Positions 2,312 to 55,766 of a stretch of 64,000 nucleotides of DNA are shown here, piece by piece. The first letter of the stretch is position 1; every line of letters begins with the position of its first letter. The notes under the pieces were generated by a model. It searched no databases. It saw only the letters and a program-made list of their open reading frames with translations, and was not told the origin of the DNA. The DNA lies in the sequence record PZ402301.1, one strand, 5' to 3'. The translations under genes and the position numbers were made by a program. Source of the DNA: a phage.

Positions 2312-2692
2312 TCACTTAGTCAAATTTTTTACACATGAATTATAAGAATTCACTACATACTCCATCGGAGCATTTTTACCAGTACGCCATTGGTAATTAT
2401 TAGCCCAATTAGCCCAAAGTTCAGCACAGTAATTTTCAATTTTTTCTTCACGCGTAATCACATCTGAATTACGATATGCTTGTGCAGATTCATCTGGACG
2501 AATAGCTTCGTCAAAATTCGCCTGCATTTGTTCTACTGTCTGTTTTGGAGCCTCTTTATAACACTTGACGTTAGGATTATAAAATTTGCTTGAACAGTTT
2601 ACAATTTTTCCTACATCAGACTGATTTACTACTGGTCCTTGAGCTACACAACCAGTAAGACCCAATGCAATAACCAAAATAGCGATTTTCAT
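2312..2692 (-). CDS. Putative lipoprotein (signal peptide MKIAILVIALGLTGC with lipobox); imm.1 position
   Basis: ATG at 2690-2692 follows an early promoter; track ORF 2312..2881 extends upstream through the promoter so the internal start is preferred. Confidence 0.5.
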   Translation of the reverse strand: MKIAILVIALGLTGCVAQGPVVNQSDVGKIVNCSSKFYNPNVKCYKEAPKQTVEQMQANFDEAIRPDESAQAYRNSDVITREEKIENYCAELWANWANNYQWRTGKNAPMEYVVNSYNSCVKNLTK

Positions 2693-2715
2693 TTCATTCT
2701 CCAAATCCGCATCAG

Positions 2716-2780
2716 TTGATAGTTGTATAGTACCACAAAGGAACCGGGATGTAAACAGTTTTGTGAAAAAATTTTTAATG
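2716..2780 (-). promoter_or_regulatory. T4-type early promoter (sigma70: -35 GTTTACA, 17-nt spacer, -10 TACTAT, A/T-rich UP element)
   Basis: Reverse complement reads aaaaattttttcacaaaactGTTTACAtcccggttcctttgtggTACTATacaact; same motif recurs through the early region. Confidence 0.6.
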
Positions 2781-2835
2781 AATTCCAGATGCCCAGAATC
2801 ATCTATTTTTCCTAAGTATAGATTTATATTACTTG

Positions 2836-2851
2836 TATGAAAAAGGGACCC
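2836..2851 (-). terminator. Intrinsic terminator-like hairpin after gene 43
   Basis: gggacc-cgga-ggtccc; on the minus transcript followed by UUUUU. Confidence 0.6.
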
Positions 2852-2873
2852 GGAGGTCCCTAGATTTATTCTA

Positions 2874-5570
2874 TCAGCCAAACAAGAAGTCTAACGAAGC
2901 TTTTTCCTCATAGTCCATACCTGCCGATTCACACATGCCCGCAAGCGGTTTAACAAACGATTTTTGGAACAAAGTTGAGTAGTCAATCCAAGACAGTACA
3001 TCAGAACGAATTTCTTTTGGAAGTTCCGTACCCGACGGCCAAGCAATGCACTTGTCACCAAATGGATTTCCCTCACGTAATGGAAGAACCATTACCTTAT
3101 TTCCATCCAAAATTGGAGCTACACCTAAACCACTAACAGCTCGACGATAAGTTAGCACCCCACGAATGTGGAACGGGCATTTAAATCCTGGCCAACCTTT
3201 ATCGTCATATTTCGCTATATCGTTCGCGGTTTTTACTTCAGCAATAACTTTATAGTCAAGTTGACGATATTCTTTCTCAAAGTTCTTGTAGTATTCTTGG
3301 ACAGACTCTTCGCCTTCCTGAAGAATACGACGAATACTTTCTTCGAGAGCTTCTTGTACTGCTTTTGGTGTTGAACTCTGCTGAGTTTCCATACCCATGA
3401 TTTTTAGATGCGGTTCAGCAAATCGTTTATCTTCCATATCATAAACGTTCAGAGCATAACGTTTTTTCGCTTTCCAAAATCCACCAACACCCTTTGAACC
3501 AAGTGGAGGGCAAGAAATAGCTTCACGGTCCATATGCATCAGATGCTCGCGGTTATTCATATAATCACATAACTCACGATATGCAACATCAATCATAGGT
3601 TCCATCTTTTTCTTACCAAACTGATTCATAAATTCAACTAAATCATTTTGTTCTTTAAAGCGGTCAAGACCTACTTTTTCAATAACTTTATCTACACAAA
3701 CATATACCGAATCAGTATCACCCGCTGCGATGAAATCTTCACCATCAGTTCCACACACTTTATTCAGATATTCATTAATTTTACGAGCAATCCACTGAAT
3801 ACCAACTTGACCAAAAATTGTGATAGCAGTAGCATTTCGCAAATCATAATAGCGGAAATGAATATTACCAAGAGCACCATAAAGACTGTTGATAAGAATT
3901 TTACGGTTCAGCTGATTTGTGTTAGCAAGTGTAGCTGCTTTTTCACATTCTTCGATCAGACTATTAAGAACAGATTCAGTGTAATTCGATAATTCGTTTA
4001 AGAAATCATCATTGAATTTAACATATCGTTCAACTTCTGGTTTAGTTGAACAAGACCCTGCACCTTTCATAATAATCTTTTTAATAGCTTCGGCATTCAT
4101 TTCTTCAGCGAACATTTTCTTTTTCCAATCTTTACGTTGGAAAAATACTTTAGCGATTTCCTTTGGAATGATACCTTCTTGATGCTTATCATACATCCAT
4201 CCATTAGGAGAACAAGAATATTCATCACTTGGCTTAGGAGCTGTTCCTGCGATATATTCATGAATTGGATGAACTTTAAACTGCCCACGAATAGTCTCAG
4301 GACTAATGTTAACCTGACGAATAATGCTAGGATACAGAGACGTCAAGTCAAAACTCATAATGTATCGACGAGCAATCGGTTTAGGTTCAAATACAAATGC
4401 ACCTGGAAAACTCTGTTTAACGTGCGAACCTTGTTGAGGAATAACCTTATGTTCGCCTTTCAGTGAGTTAAAAATAATAGCGTCCCAAGTTTTAATAGGA
4501 CTCATTACACCAGAAAAAGGCATTTTAGCGTAATAAGACATACTTAAAACTAGATCAATAAACCCACGAATTTTATCAATTGCTTGAACTGATTCTACGT
4601 CAATGATGTTATAACTAATGTATCGTTGATGATTAGTCTCACGAAGTTTATTAATAGGACCATCGTACGGCAATTTACCTTTTTTGGTTTCGTGCTGAGC
4701 AACTGATTCCAAAGAGAATGATGGCAAATTAGTAAATGCGAATTTTTTGTACAAATCTAAATAATCAAGAATAGATACGCCATCAATAGAATAAATTTCT
4801 TTGCTACCGTACATATTTTGAATTAGTTTAGATTTTACTCGACCGATTGGAGAGAAGCGTTTCATACTACGTTCACCGAGAACCATTTTAACACGATTCA
4901 TGATATACGGAACGTCAAATCCCTCAATATTCCAACCGGTAAAAATAGCAGGTCGTTTCTGTTCCCAGAGATTAATATATTCCATGAGCATATCGCGCTC
5001 ATTATCAAATGGCATATAAATTACTCGGTCAAGAATTTCTTGAGGAACTTCATCACCACCTTCACAGTCAAGCTTAGCAGCTAACTTTGCATCCCATTTT
5101 GATACTGAACCGTACATTGAATTCAACAAATCAAAGACGTAAAAACGGTCGTCAATTGAATCATAATGAGTGATAGCATCAATTTCATATTCTGCTTTCA
5201 TTGGGTCAGGAAATTTATCACCAGTAACCTCAATGTCACAGTTAGCTACACGAACAAATTTTCGGTCATAAACAATTTCTGAACCATATGTATCACTGAT
5301 ATAAGCGAGTTTAAAATCGTTCATACCAAGAGCTTCGAGACCGATGTCTTCCATTCGCTTCATCCAGTCTCGTGCATCTTTCATTGATGGAAATTTTTGA
5401 GGAGCGCAATTTTTACCGTAAATGTCTTTGTACTTTGACTCTTCCTTACAATGCCTAAACATAGTCGGAAGATATTCTACTTCACGAGTACGTTCCTTTC
5501 CGTTTTCATCAATATAACGCTCAACAATATTATTTCCGACTGTTTCGATAGAGATATAAAATTCTTTCAT
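2874..5570 (-). CDS. 43: DNA polymerase (family B) with 3'-5' exonuclease
   Basis: 898 aa, MKEFYISIETVGNNIVERYIDENGKERTREVEY... matches T4 gp43 sequence and length. Confidence 0.97.
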   Translation of the reverse strand: MKEFYISIETVGNNIVERYIDENGKERTREVEYLPTMFRHCKEESKYKDIYGKNCAPQKFPSMKDARDWMKRMEDIGLEALGMNDFKLAYISDTYGSEIVYDRKFVRVANCDIEVTGDKFPDPMKAEYEIDAITHYDSIDDRFYVFDLLNSMYGSVSKWDAKLAAKLDCEGGDEVPQEILDRVIYMPFDNERDMLMEYINLWEQKRPAIFTGWNIEGFDVPYIMNRVKMVLGERSMKRFSPIGRVKSKLIQNMYGSKEIYSIDGVSILDYLDLYKKFAFTNLPSFSLESVAQHETKKGKLPYDGPINKLRETNHQRYISYNIIDVESVQAIDKIRGFIDLVLSMSYYAKMPFSGVMSPIKTWDAIIFNSLKGEHKVIPQQGSHVKQSFPGAFVFEPKPIARRYIMSFDLTSLYPSIIRQVNISPETIRGQFKVHPIHEYIAGTAPKPSDEYSCSPNGWMYDKHQEGIIPKEIAKVFFQRKDWKKKMFAEEMNAEAIKKIIMKGAGSCSTKPEVERYVKFNDDFLNELSNYTESVLNSLIEECEKAATLANTNQLNRKILINSLYGALGNIHFRYYDLRNATAITIFGQVGIQWIARKINEYLNKVCGTDGEDFIAAGDTDSVYVCVDKVIEKVGLDRFKEQNDLVEFMNQFGKKKMEPMIDVAYRELCDYMNNREHLMHMDREAISCPPLGSKGVGGFWKAKKRYALNVYDMEDKRFAEPHLKIMGMETQQSSTPKAVQEALEESIRRILQEGEESVQEYYKNFEKEYRQLDYKVIAEVKTANDIAKYDDKGWPGFKCPFHIRGVLTYRRAVSGLGVAPILDGNKVMVLPLREGNPFGDKCIAWPSGTELPKEIRSDVLSWIDYSTLFQKSFVKPLAGMCESAGMDYEEKASLDFLFG

Positions 5571-33217: not shown

Positions 33218-33604
33218 TTATTCGAGGGAAAGAAGATATTTACTTTGATAAAACATTCCAGTAATATCATCTATCGTACTTTGAATGGCTGGAGGCATTT
33301 CTTTGTAAATGCTGTTAGATTGGTCTAGTATGCGATCAATCATTTTAATTGTGTCGGTAGGAAGTTTACTGGCATCCGGAATTGACGGCGTGTATTTTCT
33401 ACCAGAATACCCCAAATATTGCTCACCAAATTTATCAATCAAATCTGGTAACTCAGAGAAAATAAAATCGTATGCTTTGTGTCTAGCATAACTTTTAGTT
33501 TCAAAATGTGCAGAATGAAAATAAGCTTGTGCAGCCATTAATAAACCTAAGTATTCATCTGCCTTTGAAGGTTTTCCACTTTGTGAAAAGTCGCTGAATT
33601 TCAT
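33218..33604 (-). CDS. Hypothetical protein (rI.-1 position)
   Basis: 128 aa ORF immediately before rI. Confidence 0.5.
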
Positions 33605-33894
33605 TCAGTCTCCAATTTAATGTTCATAATTCTAGCGTATGATTGTGCCATCTCCGCGCCTCGTTCTATACATTCAAAATCGGAAGAGCACGGGTCATTT
33701 TTATAGGTCGTTCGCATAAAACTATAGAACTGTTCAGATGATTCTACGCTTTTATTTTCAAAAAGCATATAAACGTGTCTAATGCCAGATTCCATAAATT
33801 TATCAAAATGAGGATCGACATTCGCTTCAATCGGTGGAGATAAAGCAAACGCTAATCCTAGCATGGCAAATAGTGCCGTTGCTTTTAAGGCCAT
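33601..33894 (-). CDS. rI: Lysis inhibition regulator rI (secreted antiholin)
   Basis: 97 aa; MALKATALFAMLGLAFALSPPIEANVDPHFDKFMESGIRHVYMLFENK... matches T4 RI. Confidence 0.9.
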   Translation of the reverse strand: MALKATALFAMLGLAFALSPPIEANVDPHFDKFMESGIRHVYMLFENKSVESSEQFYSFMRTTYKNDPCSSDFECIERGAEMAQSYARIMNIKLETE

Positions 33895-34938: not shown

Positions 34939-35108
34939 ATATTAATTTCCAGGAGTTTTAAAATAATTCGCTTTTGCTTAAATATTTCCGTAGTTAAATG
35001 GTCAGTATCTTTTTGACCGATTCCAATGGCAAAACCTTTATTAACAGCGAGTTCAATTAAATTATCAAGCTCACGTAACACTTCATATTGTAACTCAAAA
35101 TTATTCAT
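34935..35108 (-). CDS. Hypothetical small protein (57 aa)
   Basis: My own translation MNNFELQYEVLRELDNLIELAVNKGFAIGIGQKDTDHLTTEIFKQKRIILKLLEINI; stop overlaps next start. Confidence 0.3.
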   Translation of the reverse strand: MNNFELQYEVLRELDNLIELAVNKGFAIGIGQKDTDHLTTEIFKQKRIILKLLEINI

Positions 35109-35317
35109 TTTGGTTTACCTTCTTTAACGAAATCGGGATAAGGATAAAATCCTGAATAAAATCCTTCACCTTTATGATTGATGCATCCTTTATTAGAACA
35201 ATAGCACCAATAATCGAAATCACAAGCCATTTCATCATTACATAAAGCAAAAACAACCGGCCATTTACACTTTTCACAATGGGCATTTTTAAGAATACTA
35301 GTTTGGCTCATAACCAT
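35105..35317 (-). CDS. Hypothetical Cys-rich protein
   Basis: Track ORF 35105..35332; multiple Cys/His (CEKCKW...CNDEMACDFDYWCYCSNKGCINH). Confidence 0.4.
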   Translation of the reverse strand: MVMSQTSILKNAHCEKCKWPVVFALCNDEMACDFDYWCYCSNKGCINHKGEGFYSGFYPYPDFVKEGKPK

Positions 35318-35520
35318 GTAACCTTTAAGCAATATTCTTCTACGTGCTGTTTACGACCTTTCTTATCAATAAAGGTATATTCAACGAATGTTCCAATATA
35401 ATCTTTATCTACATCATGAGAACTATTAATTGGGCATTTAGTACGGCAAATGCGTTCCCATTGACGAATAATTTCTGCTTTGTTTTTAGGATCAAACGGA
35501 TGCGGGTAATGTACTTTCAT
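35308..35520 (-). CDS. Hypothetical protein
   Basis: 70 aa ORF. Confidence 0.4.
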   Translation of the reverse strand: MKVHYPHPFDPKNKAEIIRQWERICRTKCPINSSHDVDKDYIGTFVEYTFIDKKGRKQHVEEYCLKVTWL

Positions 35521-35971
35521 AATCCACCACTATTAAATCAATATCAGGAGTAAACATGTCGATTAATTTAGAAACCTTATCCCAATCACCGCCAGCAATA
35601 CCACAACCTATGCGTGGAATGTAAATTACTGGTTTAAACAAAAGGGTCTCTGCCTGTAGATTTAATTCTATCATGCAGTTTACTAAAGCACCATAATCAA
35701 GATTAGGACCCGGTTCGTATTGCGTATACAGGTTATAGCATATACCAAATCCCGTAGGACTATGTTTAAAAACAATAGACATATCGCCTAATTTATCGCG
35801 AGAACCGTACTCGGTAGTAGTTTTATCTATTTCTAAAATTTTAGGATAGGCCCTCGCTAATTGACCCGCTACACCTGAACCCATAGTATGAAAGCAGTTG
35901 CACCCGTGCGCAATAATATTACCTTGAAGAAATAGGGCGACAATATCGCCCTTGATATATTTTACAATCAT
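35492..35971 (-). CDS. Macro-domain protein (ADP-ribose binding/processing fold)
   Basis: 159 aa; GDIVALF...NIIAHGCNC...GSGVAG...GCGIAGG pattern typical of macro domains. Confidence 0.55.
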   Translation of the reverse strand: MIVKYIKGDIVALFLQGNIIAHGCNCFHTMGSGVAGQLARAYPKILEIDKTTTEYGSRDKLGDMSIVFKHSPTGFGICYNLYTQYEPGPNLDYGALVNCMIELNLQAETLLFKPVIYIPRIGCGIAGGDWDKVSKLIDMFTPDIDLIVVDYESTLPASV

Positions 35972-36309
35972 CTAGTACTCAATCCTCGATTATAAGAATC
36001 TACCAAACGGTCAACCATTGAATGACAAGCGGCTTTATCTTTCTCCTCCGCAACTGAACATTCTAAGGTATTCCACTTTTTAGCATATCGTTTTAACAAT
36101 GTATCATTTTTATATCTACTTGATTTATCTCTTTCTCCGTCTTTATATGCATATATTAATTTCTGCGCAAATTCAGCTTGGCATGCTTTATTTTTCCCGC
36201 AATAATCCGCGGCAGTACGGTTTACATACTCTCTAATTTCAGTGTATGATGTATTTGCTAACGCAGAAAATGAAATTAATCCTACACATAAAACCAAAAT
36301 TTTAGTCAT
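35968..36309 (-). CDS. Hypothetical secreted protein
   Basis: 113 aa; N-terminal signal peptide MTKILVLCVGLISFSALA. Confidence 0.45.
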   Translation of the reverse strand: MTKILVLCVGLISFSALANTSYTEIREYVNRTAADYCGKNKACQAEFAQKLIYAYKDGERDKSSRYKNDTLLKRYAKKWNTLECSVAEEKDKAACHSMVDRLVDSYNRGLSTR

Positions 36310-36847
36310 TTACTATTTCCAACAGTTTATTATTTTTAAGGTAGTTAGCCTTTTCTAGGACTTCAGAAGCATATTTAGAACCTGCTTTAACATTCCATCC
36401 CGAATTATAAGAGGATATTGCCTTTCTTATATCGCCCTTATGTATATTTAACCAATAAGAAAGTTCAATGTACGCCCAGGAAGCTGAATTGGACCGTTTA
36501 TTCAACATTCTTTTTATTTCAGCATCGGTCATATTATAACCAAGTTCCTTAACTCTTGCTCGCATGGTCGGCAAATAATTTTGGAACATTCCATAGGCAT
36601 GATGCTTTGGTTTAGATTTTAAATTAACTCCGGCAGAGCTTTCTTGCCATAAAATAGCAGCCATTATATGACCTAATCCACTCTTGTGGATATTTTTGTG
36701 TGTTTTATATTTTCCATCCTTAGAAAATTGTTCCCCGAATTGATATGCGTAACGCATGTTATCGAGTTGGACATTACTGAAAGTATGCTCGGAGCTATGT
36801 GCCATCATTGAAATGGCCAATAGACCAGCGAGTAGTGCTTTTCTCAT
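36302..36847 (-). CDS. Secreted lytic-transglycosylase-like (SLT-like) protein
   Basis: 181 aa; signal peptide MRKALLAGLLAISMMAHS; ILWQESSAG and AYGMFQ resemble SLT catalytic motifs. Confidence 0.5.
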   Translation of the reverse strand: MRKALLAGLLAISMMAHSSEHTFSNVQLDNMRYAYQFGEQFSKDGKYKTHKNIHKSGLGHIMAAILWQESSAGVNLKSKPKHHAYGMFQNYLPTMRARVKELGYNMTDAEIKRMLNKRSNSASWAYIELSYWLNIHKGDIRKAISSYNSGWNVKAGSKYASEVLEKANYLKNNKLLEIVND

Positions 36848-36854
36848 GCTTACC

Positions 36855-37316
36855 TCATTGAGTTTTAATTACTGCTTTAGAAGCCTTTCCTGGTAAACGA
36901 CGACTGTTAATAATTGCCATCCTGCACTGAAGCGACGGGTCTTTGAACTTCGCATTAGGTTTACAAACTGTAAATCCAAGCCAAAGATTTCCATCTGTGA
37001 TTTCTAAACGCCCAGGACGATATTCAACCCCATCAATAAAATCCTCGTCAATGTCAGGACGCGGAGGCATACTCAGGAATTCATTAACTTCTAAAACATG
37101 GTCTTTTATCTTGTGGAATAATTCAAAAACATATGTCTCATCAATCTCCCGTTGAATTGCACGATCAAGAAGATGTTGAGAATATTTTAGATGAAACGAT
37201 GAGACCCCTGCTGCTTTTGATGCCTCACGAATCTCATTGTTAATTTGACGAAACTCCGACTCAAAGTGACGACGGAGCTTATTTCGACGGATAAAAACTT
37301 CTGTGTTGATAGTCAT
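36855..37316 (-). CDS. regB: Endoribonuclease RegB
   Basis: 153 aa; MTINTEVFIRRNKLRRHFESEFRQINNEIREASKAAGVSSFHLKYSQHLL... matches T4 RegB. Confidence 0.9.
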   Translation of the reverse strand: MTINTEVFIRRNKLRRHFESEFRQINNEIREASKAAGVSSFHLKYSQHLLDRAIQREIDETYVFELFHKIKDHVLEVNEFLSMPPRPDIDEDFIDGVEYRPGRLEITDGNLWLGFTVCKPNAKFKDPSLQCRMAIINSRRLPGKASKAVIKTQ

Positions 37317-37339: not shown

Positions 37340-37385
37340 AAAAATTATACCACAGTCAAGAGGAAAAGTAAACAATTATTCTTTA
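37340..37385 (-). promoter_or_regulatory. T4-type early promoter upstream of regB
   Basis: aaaaattataccacagtcaagaggaaaagtaaacaatt (reverse complement gives -35 GTTTAC and -10 TATAAT). Confidence 0.5.
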
Positions 37386-40444: not shown

Positions 40445-41016
<572 letters not shown>

Positions 41017-54055: not shown

Positions 54056-55766
54056 TAACCTTAATTGGTTTGTTGGTGTTGTTGAAGATAGAATGGACCC
54101 ATTAAAATTAGGTCGTGTTCGTGTTCGTGTAGTTGGTCTGCATCCACCTCAAAGAGCACAAGGCGACGTAATGGGTATTCCAACTGATAAATTACCATGG
54201 ATGTCAGTTATTCAACCTATAACTTCTGCAGCAATGTCTGGAATTGGAGGCTCCGTTACTGGTCCAGTAGAAGGAACTAGAGTTTATGGTCATTTTTTAG
54301 ACAAATGGAAAACTAACGGAATTGTCCTTGGCACATATGGCGGAATAGTTCGCGAAAAACCTAATAGACTTGAAGGATTTTCTGACCCAACTGGACAGTA
54401 TCCTAGACGTCTAGGAAATGATACTAACGTATTAAACCAAGGCGGAGAAGTAGGATATGATTCGTCTTCTAATATTATCCAAGATAGCAATCTAGACACT
54501 GCGATAAATCCCGATGATAGACCACTATCAGAAATTCCAACTGATGATAATCCAAATATGTCAATGGCTGAAATGCTTCGCCGTGATGAAGGATTAAGAC
54601 TAAAAGTTTATTGGGATACTGAAGGATATCCGACAATTGGTATTGGTCATCTTATCATGAAGCAGCCAGTTCGTGATATGACTCAAATTAATAAAGTTTT
54701 ATCAAAACAAGTTGGTCGTGAAATTACCGGAAATCCAGGTTCTATTACAATGGAAGAAGCGGTAGCTTTATTTGAACGTGATTTGGCTGATATGCAACGT
54801 GACATTAAATCACATTCTAAAGTTGGCCCAGTTTGGAAAGCAGTTAATCGTTCTCGTCAAATGGCATTAGAAAATATGGCATTTCAGATGGGCGTTGGCG
54901 GTGTAGCTAAATTTAACACAATGTTAACAGCTATGTTAGCCGGAGATTGGGAAAAAGCATATAAAGCTGGTCGTGATTCATTGTGGTATCAACAAACAAA
55001 AGGCCGTGCATCTCGTGTTACCATGATTATTCTTACAGGTAATTTGGAATCATACGGTATTGAAGTGAAAACACCAGCTAGGTCTTTGTCAGCAATGGCT
55101 GCTACTGCAGCAAAGTCTTCTGATCCAGCTGACCCTCCTATTCCGAATGATTCGAGAATTTTATTTAAAGAACCTGTTTCTTCATATAAAGGTGAATATC
55201 CATATGTTCACACAATGGAAACTGAAAGCGGTCATATTCAGGAATTTGATGATACCCCTGGGCAAGAGCGATACAGATTAGTTCATCCGACTGGAACGTA
55301 TGAGGAAGTATCACCGTCAGGAAGAAGAACAAGAAAAACTGTTGATAATTTGTATGATATAACAAATGCTGATGGTAATTTTTTGGTAGCTGGCGATAAA
55401 AAGACTAACGTCGGTGGATCAGAAATTTATTACAACATGGATAATCGTCTTCACCAAATAGATGGAAGCAACACAATATTTGTCCGTGGCGATGAAACTA
55501 AGACAGTTGAAGGTAATGGAACTATCCTAGTTAAAGGTAATGTTACTATTGTAGTCGAAGGTAATGCTGACATTACAGTTAAAGGAGATGCTACCACTTT
55601 AGTTGAAGGAAATCAGACTAATACAGTAAATGGAAATCTTTCTTGGAAAGTTGCTGGAACAGTTGATTGGGACGTTGGTGGTGATTGGACAGAAAAAATG
55701 GCATCTATGAGTTCTATTTCATCTGGTCAATACACAATTGATGGATCGAGGATTGACATTGGCTAA
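54039..55766 (+). CDS. 5: Baseplate hub plus tail lysozyme gp5
   Basis: 575 aa as T4 gp5; internal lysozyme domain (MAEMLRRDEGLRLKVYWDTEGYPTIGIGHL) and C-terminal beta-helix VxGxxxxxV repeats. Confidence 0.95.
   Translation: MEMISNNLNWFVGVVEDRMDPLKLGRVRVRVVGLHPPQRAQGDVMGIPTDKLPWMSVIQPITSAAMSGIGGSVTGPVEGTRVYGHFLDKWKTNGIVLGTYGGIVREKPNRLEGFSDPTGQYPRRLGNDTNVLNQGGEVGYDSSSNIIQDSNLDTAINPDDRPLSEIPTDDNPNMSMAEMLRRDEGLRLKVYWDTEGYPTIGIGHLIMKQPVRDMTQINKVLSKQVGREITGNPGSITMEEAVALFERDLADMQRDIKSHSKVGPVWKAVNRSRQMALENMAFQMGVGGVAKFNTMLTAMLAGDWEKAYKAGRDSLWYQQTKGRASRVTMIILTGNLESYGIEVKTPARSLSAMAATAAKSSDPADPPIPNDSRILFKEPVSSYKGEYPYVHTMETESGHIQEFDDTPGQERYRLVHPTGTYEEVSPSGRRTRKTVDNLYDITNADGNFLVAGDKKTNVGGSEIYYNMDNRLHQIDGSNTIFVRGDETKTVEGNGTILVKGNVTIVVEGNADITVKGDATTLVEGNQTNTVNGNLSWKVAGTVDWDVGGDWTEKMASMSSISSGQYTIDGSRIDIG

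Follow-up and report, generated by a model that had tools for sequence, protein, structure and literature searches.

The locus considered here raises the question of whether a macrodomain gene shares a task with the two genes for predicted exported proteins that it adjoins, or whether they are neighbors with separate roles. It lies in a 64,000-nucleotide stretch of phage DNA (record PZ402301.1; this whole stretch is the window). The phage is a Tequatrovirus (T4-like), with 99% DNA identity to Tequatroviruses in which tk.4, vs, vs.1, and regB are annotated, and the gene identities also match the annotation of T4 itself (protein identity to T4 of 58% for Tk.4, 97% for Vs, and 99% for Vs.1). The locus corresponds to the early block regB-vs.1-vs-tk.4 of T4-like phages, in which two functionally separate things lie side by side. 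The account developed below, of a predicted anti-DarT macrodomain functionally separate from an exported, translationally coupled Vs.1-Vs pair, is one that we consider likely as a whole.

An earlier note on this DNA had described three open reading frames: a macrodomain protein and two secreted proteins, one of them reminiscent of soluble lytic transglycosylases. The three frames occupy the minus-strand positions given in Table 1, and every motif that the note quoted appears on translation: the 159-aa protein contains GDIVALF, NIIAHGCNC, GSGVAG, and GCGIAGG, and the 181-aa protein contains ILWQESS and AYGMFQ. The domains were assigned correctly, yet the assignments concern named T4 genes whose A1pp/macro and SLT similarities, including that of Vs.1, have been in print since 2006 (PMC1524935). 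All three genes sit downstream of regB on the minus strand, and regB adjoins vs.1 in 45 of 47 related loci. The sigma-70-like site upstream of regB is the best-scoring one, but such sites are no more numerous here than in shuffled sequence, and it is thus to be read as a consensus match only.

Table 1. Positions in the window of the genes and features discussed in the text.
Feature	Position	Strand	Description
tk.4 (adfM orthologue)	35492..35971	(-)	159-aa ORF, macrodomain; predicted cytoplasmic, without signal peptide
vs	35968..36309	(-)	113-aa precursor, predicted exported four-helix bundle; label "valyl-tRNA synthetase modifier"
vs signal peptide, codons 1-18	36256..36309	(-)	Predicted Sec, cleavage after Ala-Leu-Ala18
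vs.1	36302..36847	(-)	181-aa precursor, predicted exported family-1 (GH23/SLT) lytic transglycosylase-like enzyme
vs.1 signal peptide, codons 1-18	36794..36847	(-)	Predicted Sec, cleavage after Ala-His-Ser18
Vs.1 Glu69 codon	36641..36643	(-)	Predicted single catalytic acid (W-Q-E-S-S)
vs.1 stop/vs start overlap, 8 nt (ATGACTAA)	36302..36309	(-)	Read in sequence
vs stop/tk.4 start overlap, 4 nt (ATGA)	35968..35971	(-)	Read in sequence
regB	36855..37316	(-)	Pfam REGB_T4 1.4e-68; first gene of the inferred early unit regB-vs.1-vs-tk.4
Sigma-70-like promoter (TTTACT, 17 nt, TG, TATAAT)	37344..37372	(-)	Consensus match upstream of regB

The macrodomain call for the 159-aa protein is borne out by profile matches to both Pfam and PDB entries. 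Tk.4 matches Pfam Macro (PF01661) over 116 of the 118 profile positions with a score of 32 bits (E 1.3e-7; cut-off 22), and the 12 orthologues examined all match Macro too. Its PDB profile matches include BT1257 (6e-15) and TARG1 (9e-11), with SCO6735 and the DarG macrodomain as other relatives. The best NCBIfam match is DarG (1.5e-6; PADLOC DarG 5.2e-7), although the DarG equivalog (NF048014; cut-off 250 bits) is matched with a score of only 27.7 bits and over no more than positions 2-142 of 338. Judged by sequence profiles, Tk.4 is closest to the DarG/TARG1/BT1257 macrodomain class. The two glycine-rich ADP-ribose-binding loops align with their counterparts in BT1257 and TARG1; across the 12 orthologues, G31, G33, and A35 are invariant in the first loop (G36 in 10 of 12), and G122, G124, I125, and G128 are invariant in the second. 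The TARG1-type catalytic pair is absent from the Tk.4 family in the HMMER profile alignment, a comparison of sequence only in which K84 aligns with an invariant Q84 and D125 with A126, and this makes the chemistry of any ADP-ribose removal by Tk.4 uncertain. The catalytic lysine of DarG, which we take to be K80, was checked here only through TARG1. Rule-based n/h/c analysis found no signal peptide in Tk.4.

Orthology to T4 tk.4 is indicated by the position of the gene, which in both phages is flanked by vs and tk.3, and by the identity of 58%, which extends over the full length; with these two neighbors, no darT gene is adjacent. The T4 protein, an anti-DarTG2 factor, was named AdfM (anti-DarT factor Macrodomain) in a 2025 preprint, in which tk.4 was the single significant hit of a genome-wide screen and its clean deletion sensitised the phage to the DarTG2 defence, a protection demonstrated for the T4 protein only (bioRxiv 10.1101/2025.11.20.689424). 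As the AdfM orthologue, the Tk.4 of this phage would be a small cytoplasmic macrodomain that most likely binds ADP-ribose via the loops G31-S-G-V-A-G36 and G122-C-G-I-A-G-G128. Its most likely activity is to strip the ADP-ribose added by the host toxin DarT2 from thymidines of phage single-stranded DNA, which would let replication continue; we infer this enzymology, and the genetics come from T4 only.

For the 181-aa protein, Vs.1, the SLT-like call holds in that Pfam SLT (PF01464) is matched above its cut-off, albeit marginally (23.4 bits, cut-off 21.3, E 4.8e-5), and is also matched by 24 of 27 orthologues (best E 1.3e-7). Searches of PDB sequences with Vs.1, both as a single sequence and as a 27-sequence profile, returned no significant lytic transglycosylase, and the relationship was detected only by the Pfam HMM and by fold comparison. 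As modeled, Vs.1 has the lysozyme-like all-alpha fold of GH23, and it combines a predicted catalytic Glu-Ser at a helix end with GLMQ-like and AYNxG-like motifs. In the structure model E69 is at the end of helix 59-70, and this residue is invariant in the 27 orthologues, together with G86, F88, Q89, Y147, N148, and G150, while S70 and S71 are nearly so. The protein is separate from the endolysin e (40489-40980) and the gp5 lysozyme domain (54558-55055; window coordinates), the two enzymes from which the earlier note had set it apart.

Signal peptides were judged by rules (a positive n-region, an h-region of 7-15 residues, a small-x-small site, and no further transmembrane segment) and by conservation. 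In Vs.1, the predicted signal peptide consists of MRK, then ALLAGLLAISMM, then AHS↓S (arrow, cleavage site), and its features recur in 39 of 40 distinct orthologues. That in Vs consists of MTK, then ILVLCVGLISF, then SALA↓N (KD10 3.0), and all 41 distinct orthologues have one, even though identity in that segment is low. Besides the signal peptide, no further hydrophobic segment was found in either protein. The prediction that both genes encode secreted proteins is supported by these classical n/h/c signal peptides and by their conservation across orthologues. A SAR (signal-anchor-release) domain in Vs.1, by analogy with RI and the SAR endolysins, was considered and rejected because the h-region has ~13 residues and the small-x-small site is conserved. 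Vs.1 would leave via the Sec pathway and be cleaved after residue 18 to give a mature form of 163 aa (pI 9.7) with the predicted N-terminal peptide SEHTFSNVQLDNMR. This form would be a single-domain GH23/family-1 lytic transglycosylase in which Glu69 would cut the MurNAc-GlcNAc bond of murein, probably leaving 1,6-anhydroMurNAc ends, and it would act from early to middle infection onward. Both Vs and Vs.1 have been detected as proteins in T4-infected cells, and T4 omics assign their RNA to the early class and the proteins to the middle class. Vs.1 is, in sum, a predicted exported cell-wall-cutting enzyme; our literature search found no paper on a Vs.1 activity.

The middle gene of the three had been described simply as encoding a secreted protein, and while the signal peptide is there, its identity had been missed: it is vs, the gene labeled valyl-tRNA synthetase modifier. 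Vs matches phrog_1256 (7.5e-40), and its homologues carry PF26829. A canonical lipobox (LSG↓C) occurs in five distinct orthologue sequences. The L-V-L-C8 of Vs in this phage was rejected as a lipobox because it is not canonical; canonical LSGC is confined to another lineage. The AF2 model of Vs (pLDDT 85) has four helices, with Cys37/Cys43 and Cys84/Cys95 at helix ends and turns, and these four cysteines are conserved among full-length orthologues. Vs would be exported via Sec and cleaved after residue 18, giving a mature form of 95 aa (computed mass 11.0 kDa, against 12.9 kDa for the precursor) with the predicted N-terminal peptide DTSYTEIR in T4 and NTSYTEIR in this phage; the mature protein would be a bundle of four helices that two disulfides probably staple together. 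These predicted export features are hard to square with the traditional description of Vs as modifying a cytoplasmic tRNA synthetase, and no paper discussing Vs export was found in the literature searched.

An ORF of the Vs family follows vs.1 with a gap of -8 to +3 nt in all 47 related loci, in which Vs.1 identity ranges from 44 to 100%, and hhalign shows the distant Vs to be homologues of the T4-type ones (98.5%, E 2e-15). The 8-nt overlap in this phage implies translational coupling, and Vs.1 and Vs would thus be made from overlapping, coupled genes. Across loci, Vs identity tracks Vs.1 identity (Spearman 0.64-0.89), but Tk.4 identity does not (0.01-0.09). In published T4 transposon data, mutants of vs and vs.1 both have ~10-fold lower counts than those of flanking genes. 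In minimal medium the log2FC is -2.19 for vs (adjusted p 0) and -0.87 for vs.1 (p 0.0055, adjusted p 0.155, not significant after correction), and the depletion of vs.1 could be a polar effect on the coupled vs. A role of Vs as a pure inhibitor of Vs.1 is not favored, as insertions in vs.1 are not neutral but depleted as well, although polarity precludes a firm conclusion. A Vs-like neighbor is absent beside the Vs.1-like exported SLT proteins of Slopekvirus, Kuttervirus, Felixounavirus, and Tedavirus, which indicates that Vs is not an obligatory partner, and the pI of Vs (4.7 to 9.1 across orthologues), set against an always-basic Vs.1, gives no consistent electrostatic match. Vs.1 and Vs resemble a conserved pair of exported proteins, and this is the one fresh point of the analysis.

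The macrodomain gene behaves differently from this pair. Tk.4 identity is 57% where Vs.1 identity is 99%, and 90-93% where Vs.1 identity is 66-68%; on this sequence evidence, tk.4 alleles are swapped frequently and independently of vs.1 and vs. A single functional module of all three genes, in which the macrodomain would cooperate with the exported proteins as the title of the earlier note hinted, has in its favor that the genes overlap and are probably co-transcribed, that 42 of the 47 loci have tk.4 no more than ~1.5 kb downstream of vs.1, and that a gene for a Tk.4-like macrodomain comes immediately after a Vs.1-like gene in phiA8-29, an unrelated phage of Aeromonas (Ackermannviridae). We nonetheless regard a single module as extremely improbable, and a three-gene functional unit was rejected on the allele shuffling and on the distinct phenotypes, that of tk.4 appearing only with DarTG2 and those of vs and vs.1 in minimal medium; Tk.4 also has no export signal, and many phages carry other genes between vs and tk.4. 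The macrodomain beside two exported proteins would thus reflect gene order without a common function. For Tk.4 itself, a job other than opposing DarT2 is conceivable, in which it removes or reads ADP-ribose or RNA chains placed on host proteins by the transferases of the phage, Alt, ModA, and ModB, or acts as an ADP-ribose-1''-phosphate phosphatase. Sequence records and PHROGs name it "phosphatase" or A1pp, its N-terminal half matches yeast ADP-ribose 1''-phosphate phosphatase structures (E 1.5e-11), the catalytic Lys and Asp of TARG1 are missing, and most phage macrodomains have been argued from comparative genomics to target small ADP-ribose derivatives (PMC9503650). Such a job is nevertheless unlikely: the only experimental phenotype is the loss of DarTG2 resistance in T4, from one screen hit and a clean deletion, the best curated family match is DarG, and tk.4 insertions are neutral in LB and M9 without a defence system (T4 transposon data). 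We judge it quite unlikely that Vs.1, instead of being a lytic transglycosylase, hydrolyses murein as a muramidase, in the manner of goose-type lysozyme, or binds it without catalysis. While a g-type lysozyme is the sole near-significant match among PDB sequences and there is a second invariant acid, E128, the 27 orthologues have no invariant counterpart of the aspartate by which g-type lysozymes assist hydrolysis, the invariant catalytic Glu speaks against a pure binder, and ES, G-x-F-Q, and Y-N-x-G are the motifs that Blackburn and Clarke reportedly assigned in 2001 to family-1 lytic transglycosylases.

As labeled, Vs would be a cytoplasmic peptide that binds and modifies the host valyl-tRNA synthetase (ValRS), its adjacency to vs.1 reflecting conserved order, and its hydrophobic N-terminus being unused for export or its pool exported in part. 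The label is carried by T4 and hundreds of other records, by phrog_1256, and by PF26829; the vs knock-out defect is specific to minimal medium, fitting a role in translation under amino-acid limitation, and other phage groups have Vs.1-like enzymes but no Vs. Marchin, Neidhardt and co-workers reportedly tied vs to a ~10-kDa phage peptide bound to ValRS, and classical vs mutants are said to show altered growth on valS(ts) hosts. The mass of that peptide is nearer that of mature Vs than that of the precursor, however, such that the ValRS-bound form may be exported, cleaved Vs. A purely cytoplasmic Vs is also difficult to reconcile with a canonical signal peptide in every distinct orthologue, a lipobox in five distinct orthologue sequences (meaningful only for exported proteins), four conserved cysteines placed where disulfides would staple helix hairpins, a gene always translationally coupled to that of an exported enzyme, and the insolubility of full-length His-tagged Vs in the cytoplasm (PMC8076793), and we find the labeled role somewhat doubtful. 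In place of, or besides, modifying cytoplasmic ValRS, Vs may act in the envelope as a partner, adaptor, or regulator of Vs.1. In its fullest form, this proposal would make Vs an envelope protein and the dedicated periplasmic partner of Vs.1 (adaptor, regulator, or inhibitor), lipid-anchored in some phages, and the pair a conserved early murein-remodelling module that is most important in slow-growing cells, with ValRS modification secondary or occurring after cell breakage. We offer that fuller version tentatively, and rate it as rather unlikely in all its parts.

Taken alone, the observation first filed on this locus re-discovers published annotations of well-known T4 genes and adds little; what is new here is that a Vs-family gene comes within 8 nt after vs.1 at all 47 loci, the lipobox in five Vs orthologue sequences, and the common transposon fitness defect. 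An early exported predicted transglycosylase is conserved in >2,000 sequenced large virulent phages and is coupled to Vs always in T4-likes. Seeing Vs as exported would join two old questions, namely the function of Vs and the reason for a third T4 murein enzyme. The divergent tk.4/adfM allele, exchanged between phage genera independently of its neighbors, presents a pattern typical of counter-defence genes, and this allele diversity could serve to ask if alleles match different DarT toxins.

Compared with known systems, Tk.4 shares with T4 Tk.4/AdfM its macrodomain class, position, and similar length (159 aa, against 155 in T4), with nearly identical N-terminal 47 residues and the family-invariant residues kept; it differs in the overall identity noted above and in its second loop, where the GCGIAGGDW of the window is nearer the family consensus than the GAGIGKGNW of T4. 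The antitoxin DarG, the closest curated family, and human TARG1 (OARD1) resemble it, a PRIGCG-type loop being common to Tk.4 and TARG1, but Tk.4 (159 aa against a 338-position model) is without the C-terminal DarT-binding domain of DarG. T4 Vs.1 (P13311, "conserved hypothetical") shows no difference of substance from the Vs.1 of the window, with one substitution and the same operon position. Slt70, MltC, and MltE of E. coli, MltF and Slt of P. aeruginosa, and the T3SS-specialised EtgA, in contrast, share only 13-21% sequence identity with Vs.1. These family-1 lytic transglycosylases are host lipoproteins or multidomain enzymes, whereas Vs.1 is a soluble phage early protein that has, unlike them, a family-specific N-terminal extension (residues 20-58).

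For Vs, the nearest likeness in kind is to T4 Spackle (gp61.3) and RI, which are also small, early, signal-bearing proteins and whose periplasmic targets are related to murein or to lysis. A comparison of Vs with these detected no similarity in sequence or in fold, and no evidence ties Vs to gp5 or to the holin. In the window, rI lies ~2 kb away (33601-33894), and in Acinetobacter-type T4-likes it lies ~0.7 kb beyond vs and 0.3 kb beyond a third exported gene. T4 Vs (P13310; PF26829, phrog_1256) is nearly the same protein as that of the window, and its label implies a cytoplasmic target, whereas the signal peptide, lipobox variants, paired cysteines, and coupling to an exported enzyme would together imply export.

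The tk.4, vs and vs.1 ORFs lie on the minus strand where the earlier note had placed them, and follow the gene order of the T4 record: regB, vs.1, vs, tk.4, tk.3 ... tk ... rI. The window is a T4-like (Tequatrovirus) genome; over the 2.1 kb around these ORFs, it shares 99% identity with Escherichia phages HY01 and PEC04, and there are matches in 726 phage records that annotate the genes as tk.4, vs, vs.1, and regB. The vs.1/vs overlap is ATGACTAA and the vs/tk.4 overlap is ATGA; a good sigma-70-like promoter match occurs upstream of regB, although the region as a whole has no more such matches than expected by chance. T4 data place tk.4, vs, and vs.1 in the class "early RNA, middle protein," with Vs.1 and Vs both seen by mass spectrometry (PMC9697503 supplement). 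We confirm the observation, and its interpretation (a macro fold, an SLT fold, and two exported proteins) is supported; because the locus was already known at the level of annotation, and the macrodomain also at the genetic level, the finding is ordinary. The mechanism we propose has two independent parts, a cytoplasmic macrodomain and the exported Vs.1 and Vs; what remains of interest is that Vs.1-Vs coupling is conserved and that the export signals of Vs clash with its historical label.

Coordinates of the genes discussed, in the window and in related phage loci (L0xx, each with its own coordinates); the phrog_4957 gene also occurs in other loci
Feature	Sequence	Position	Strand	Remark
tk.4	window	35492-35971	minus	ORF, 159 aa
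vs	window	35968-36309	minus	ORF, 113 aa
vs.1	window	36302-36847	minus	ORF, 181 aa
endolysin e	window	40489-40980	minus	96% identical to T4 lysozyme
gp5 lysozyme domain	window	54558-55055	plus	43% identical to T4 lysozyme
phrog_4957 gene	L030	4869-5306		
phrog_4957 gene	L032	4872-5291		
phrog_4957 gene	L046	4842-5267		

Further features were observed beside these genes. The interval from tk to tk.4 holds four small ORFs in the window, against three in the T4 annotation, and a 75-aa Cys-rich ORF (35105-35332, minus strand; CEKCKW...CNDEMACDFDYWCYCSNKGC) is zinc-ribbon-like. A perfect GC-rich inverted repeat at 35934-35952 (AGGGCGA-TATTG-TCGCCCT) has a terminator-like score on both strands; as it falls inside the first tk.4 codons (K-G-D-I-V-A-L), it is probably mere coding sequence.

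Vs.1 begins with a textbook predicted Sec signal (MRK, a 13-residue hydrophobic core, AHS↓S); a signal of this kind is kept in 39 of 40 distinct orthologues, and the remaining one probably has a miscalled start. The Pfam SLT match is just over threshold and recurs in 24/27 orthologues, and AlphaFold, given 27 orthologues, yields a confident model (pLDDT 88). Conservation extends to the family-1 motifs: Glu69, Gly86-x-Phe-Gln89, and Tyr147-Asn-x-Gly150 are invariant, and the Ser after Glu69 is nearly so. Sequence-only PDB searches with Vs.1 fail, which marks it as a divergent member. These results support the SLT fold suspected in the earlier note, as well as its suggestion of a murein enzyme separate from e and gp5: both are encoded elsewhere in the window, so that Vs.1 is a third such candidate in this phage segment. 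Vs.1 would be an exported lytic transglycosylase dependent on Glu69. Its SLT similarity was reported earlier from six T4-like genomes, together with A1pp similarity for tk.4 and citation of earlier PSI-BLAST results (Nolan et al. 2006, PMC1524935), and some GenBank records already read "transglycosylase SLT domain-containing protein"; our literature search found no experimental study of Vs.1.

The middle gene, vs, is annotated "valyl-tRNA synthetase modifier." Its product has a strong predicted signal peptide (MTK, ILVLCVGLISF, SALA↓N), and signal-peptide criteria hold for all 41 distinct Vs sequences, so that both proteins called secreted in the earlier note are predicted to be exported. Four cysteines are conserved in full-length orthologues; in the model, a confident four-helix bundle (pLDDT 85), the first helix turn carries Cys37 and Cys43, and the third Cys84 and Cys95. 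The Vs family is very small, with 27 representative clusters among 1.84 billion proteins and almost all members 100-134 aa long, and no informative structural relative was found. Together, the signal peptide, cysteines, and helix-bundle model predict export. A canonical lipobox (LSG↓C), which makes sense only for an exported protein, occurs in five of the 41 sequences. In one T4-like lineage (L032 4549-4875; L033, L035, L036, L048), the orthologue starts MKKLFVLLVVFALSGCK..., with the LSG↓C lipobox and Lys at +2; sequence thus predicts that here the "valyl-tRNA synthetase modifier" is lipid-anchored, probably in the outer membrane. In classical work, vs was reportedly tied to a ~10-kDa peptide bound to valyl-tRNA synthetase (ValRS), a size that the calculated mass of mature Vs (11.0 kDa) fits better than that of the precursor (12.9 kDa). 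Full-length tagged Vs in the cytoplasm is insoluble (PMC8076793). Vs would be an exported four-helix protein, probably disulfide-stapled and co-expressed with Vs.1.

In 47/47 viral loci that encode a relative of Vs.1 (44-100% identity), the start of the following gene lies -8 to +3 nt from the vs.1 stop, and its product is ~105-122 aa long, with four cysteines and a signal peptide (truncated copies in two loci). Even the distant forms are homologues of T4-type Vs (hhalign 98.5%, E 2e-15; hmmsearch on mature parts only, down to 6e-8), and share its PHROG and Pfam family. As a limit on the pairing idea, pI is not conserved in Vs (4.7-9.1), whereas Vs.1 is basic throughout (9.3-10.0). In T4 transposon data from LB liquid competition, mean insertion counts are low in vs (26.6) and vs.1 (22.6) and far higher in their neighbors (tk.4, 289.6; regB, 178.6; vs.3, 652); in M9-glucose, insertions drop further in vs (log2FC -2.19, adjusted p 0) and also in vs.1 (log2FC -0.87, p 0.0055, adjusted p 0.155), while on plates tk.4, vs, and vs.1 are all non-essential (bioRxiv 10.1101/2025.11.20.689424). 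This common behavior fits a joint function, but polar effects of vs.1 insertions on the coupled vs gene could also account for it. Joint function is the reading we retain: Vs.1 and exported Vs would probably act together in the envelope, and it is possible, if on the doubtful side, that Vs is a periplasmic partner of Vs.1. Insertions in regB, which adjoins vs.1 upstream, show the opposite M9 trend (log2FC +1.17 versus LB, p 0.049, adjusted 0.80; Extended Data Table 6, sheet S8, of the same preprint), which may be transposon read-through boosting vs.1/vs expression, or noise.

Many non-Tequatrovirus lineages carry a third signal-peptide gene (phrog_4957; 130-147 aa, motif W-E-K-L-P-G-Y-P-E) directly after vs and before tk.4, absent from T4 and the window. 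The antiholin gene rI follows vs within ~0.7 kb in phages of the Acinetobacter type; one such T4-like locus (L046 4842-5859) has an uninterrupted run of envelope-protein genes, vs.1, vs, phrog_4957, a phrog_6298 small membrane protein, and rI (PF24205, 1e-30). Vs.1-like exported SLT proteins occur in 2,085 of 50,697 phage records, outside the T4-likes in Ackermannviridae, Felixounavirus, and Slopekvirus, among others, and Kuttervirus also has related genes. In Escherichia phage AYO145A (L050, Felixounavirus; 2501-3049), such a gene lies directly downstream of rIIA-rIIB, with its own annotated promoter. No Vs-like gene follows the Vs.1-like gene in the four non-Tevenvirinae phages examined, which again limits the pairing idea: a Vs.1-type enzyme can function in the absence of Vs.

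Identity to the T4 counterpart is 97% for Vs and 99% for Vs.1, but only 58% for Tk.4. Across the 47 related loci, identity of Vs, RegB, and Tk tracks that of Vs.1 (Spearman 0.6-0.9), whereas Tk.4 identity is uncoupled from that of its neighbors (0.01-0.09); the window Tk.4 is 90-93% identical to alleles from phages in which Vs.1 identity is only 66-68%. This shuffling fits an arms-race gene, and argues against a functional tie of the macrodomain to the two exported proteins. In Aeromonas phage phiA8-29 (L051, Ackermannviridae), a Vs.1-like exported SLT protein (2480-2989; 34% identity, E 1e-23) is directly followed, with no Vs between, by a 239-aa protein that carries a macrodomain resembling Tk.4 (2991-3710; 33% identity, E 1e-15), so that SLT-macro adjacency recurs outside the T4 family.

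The macro fold proposed in the earlier note was recovered by Pfam Macro, above threshold in Tk.4 (32 vs 22 bits) and in 12/12 orthologues. In a 2025 preprint, tk.4 proved to be the single T4 gene required on hosts expressing DarTG2, as confirmed by clean deletion, and was named adfM (anti-DarT factor Macrodomain; bioRxiv 10.1101/2025.11.20.689424). This would make the first ORF a counter-defence macrodomain: a cytoplasmic, DarG-like Tk.4 would counter DarT2, most likely by removing ADP-ribose from DarT2-modified thymidines. The closest solved structures are Bacteroides BT1257, human TARG1, Streptomyces SCO6735, yeast Poa1p (N-terminal half only), and the DarG macrodomain. DarG is also the best curated family match (NCBIfam, PADLOC), far under the full-length cut-off because Tk.4, unlike DarG, has no second domain. 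In a profile alignment, the catalytic Lys84 and Asp125 of TARG1 are replaced by invariant Gln84 and Ala126, and Tk.4 chemistry is therefore predicted not to be TARG1-type. The protein tested in the preprint, T4 Tk.4 (AdfM), itself differs from the window's allele, with which it shares only 58% identity.
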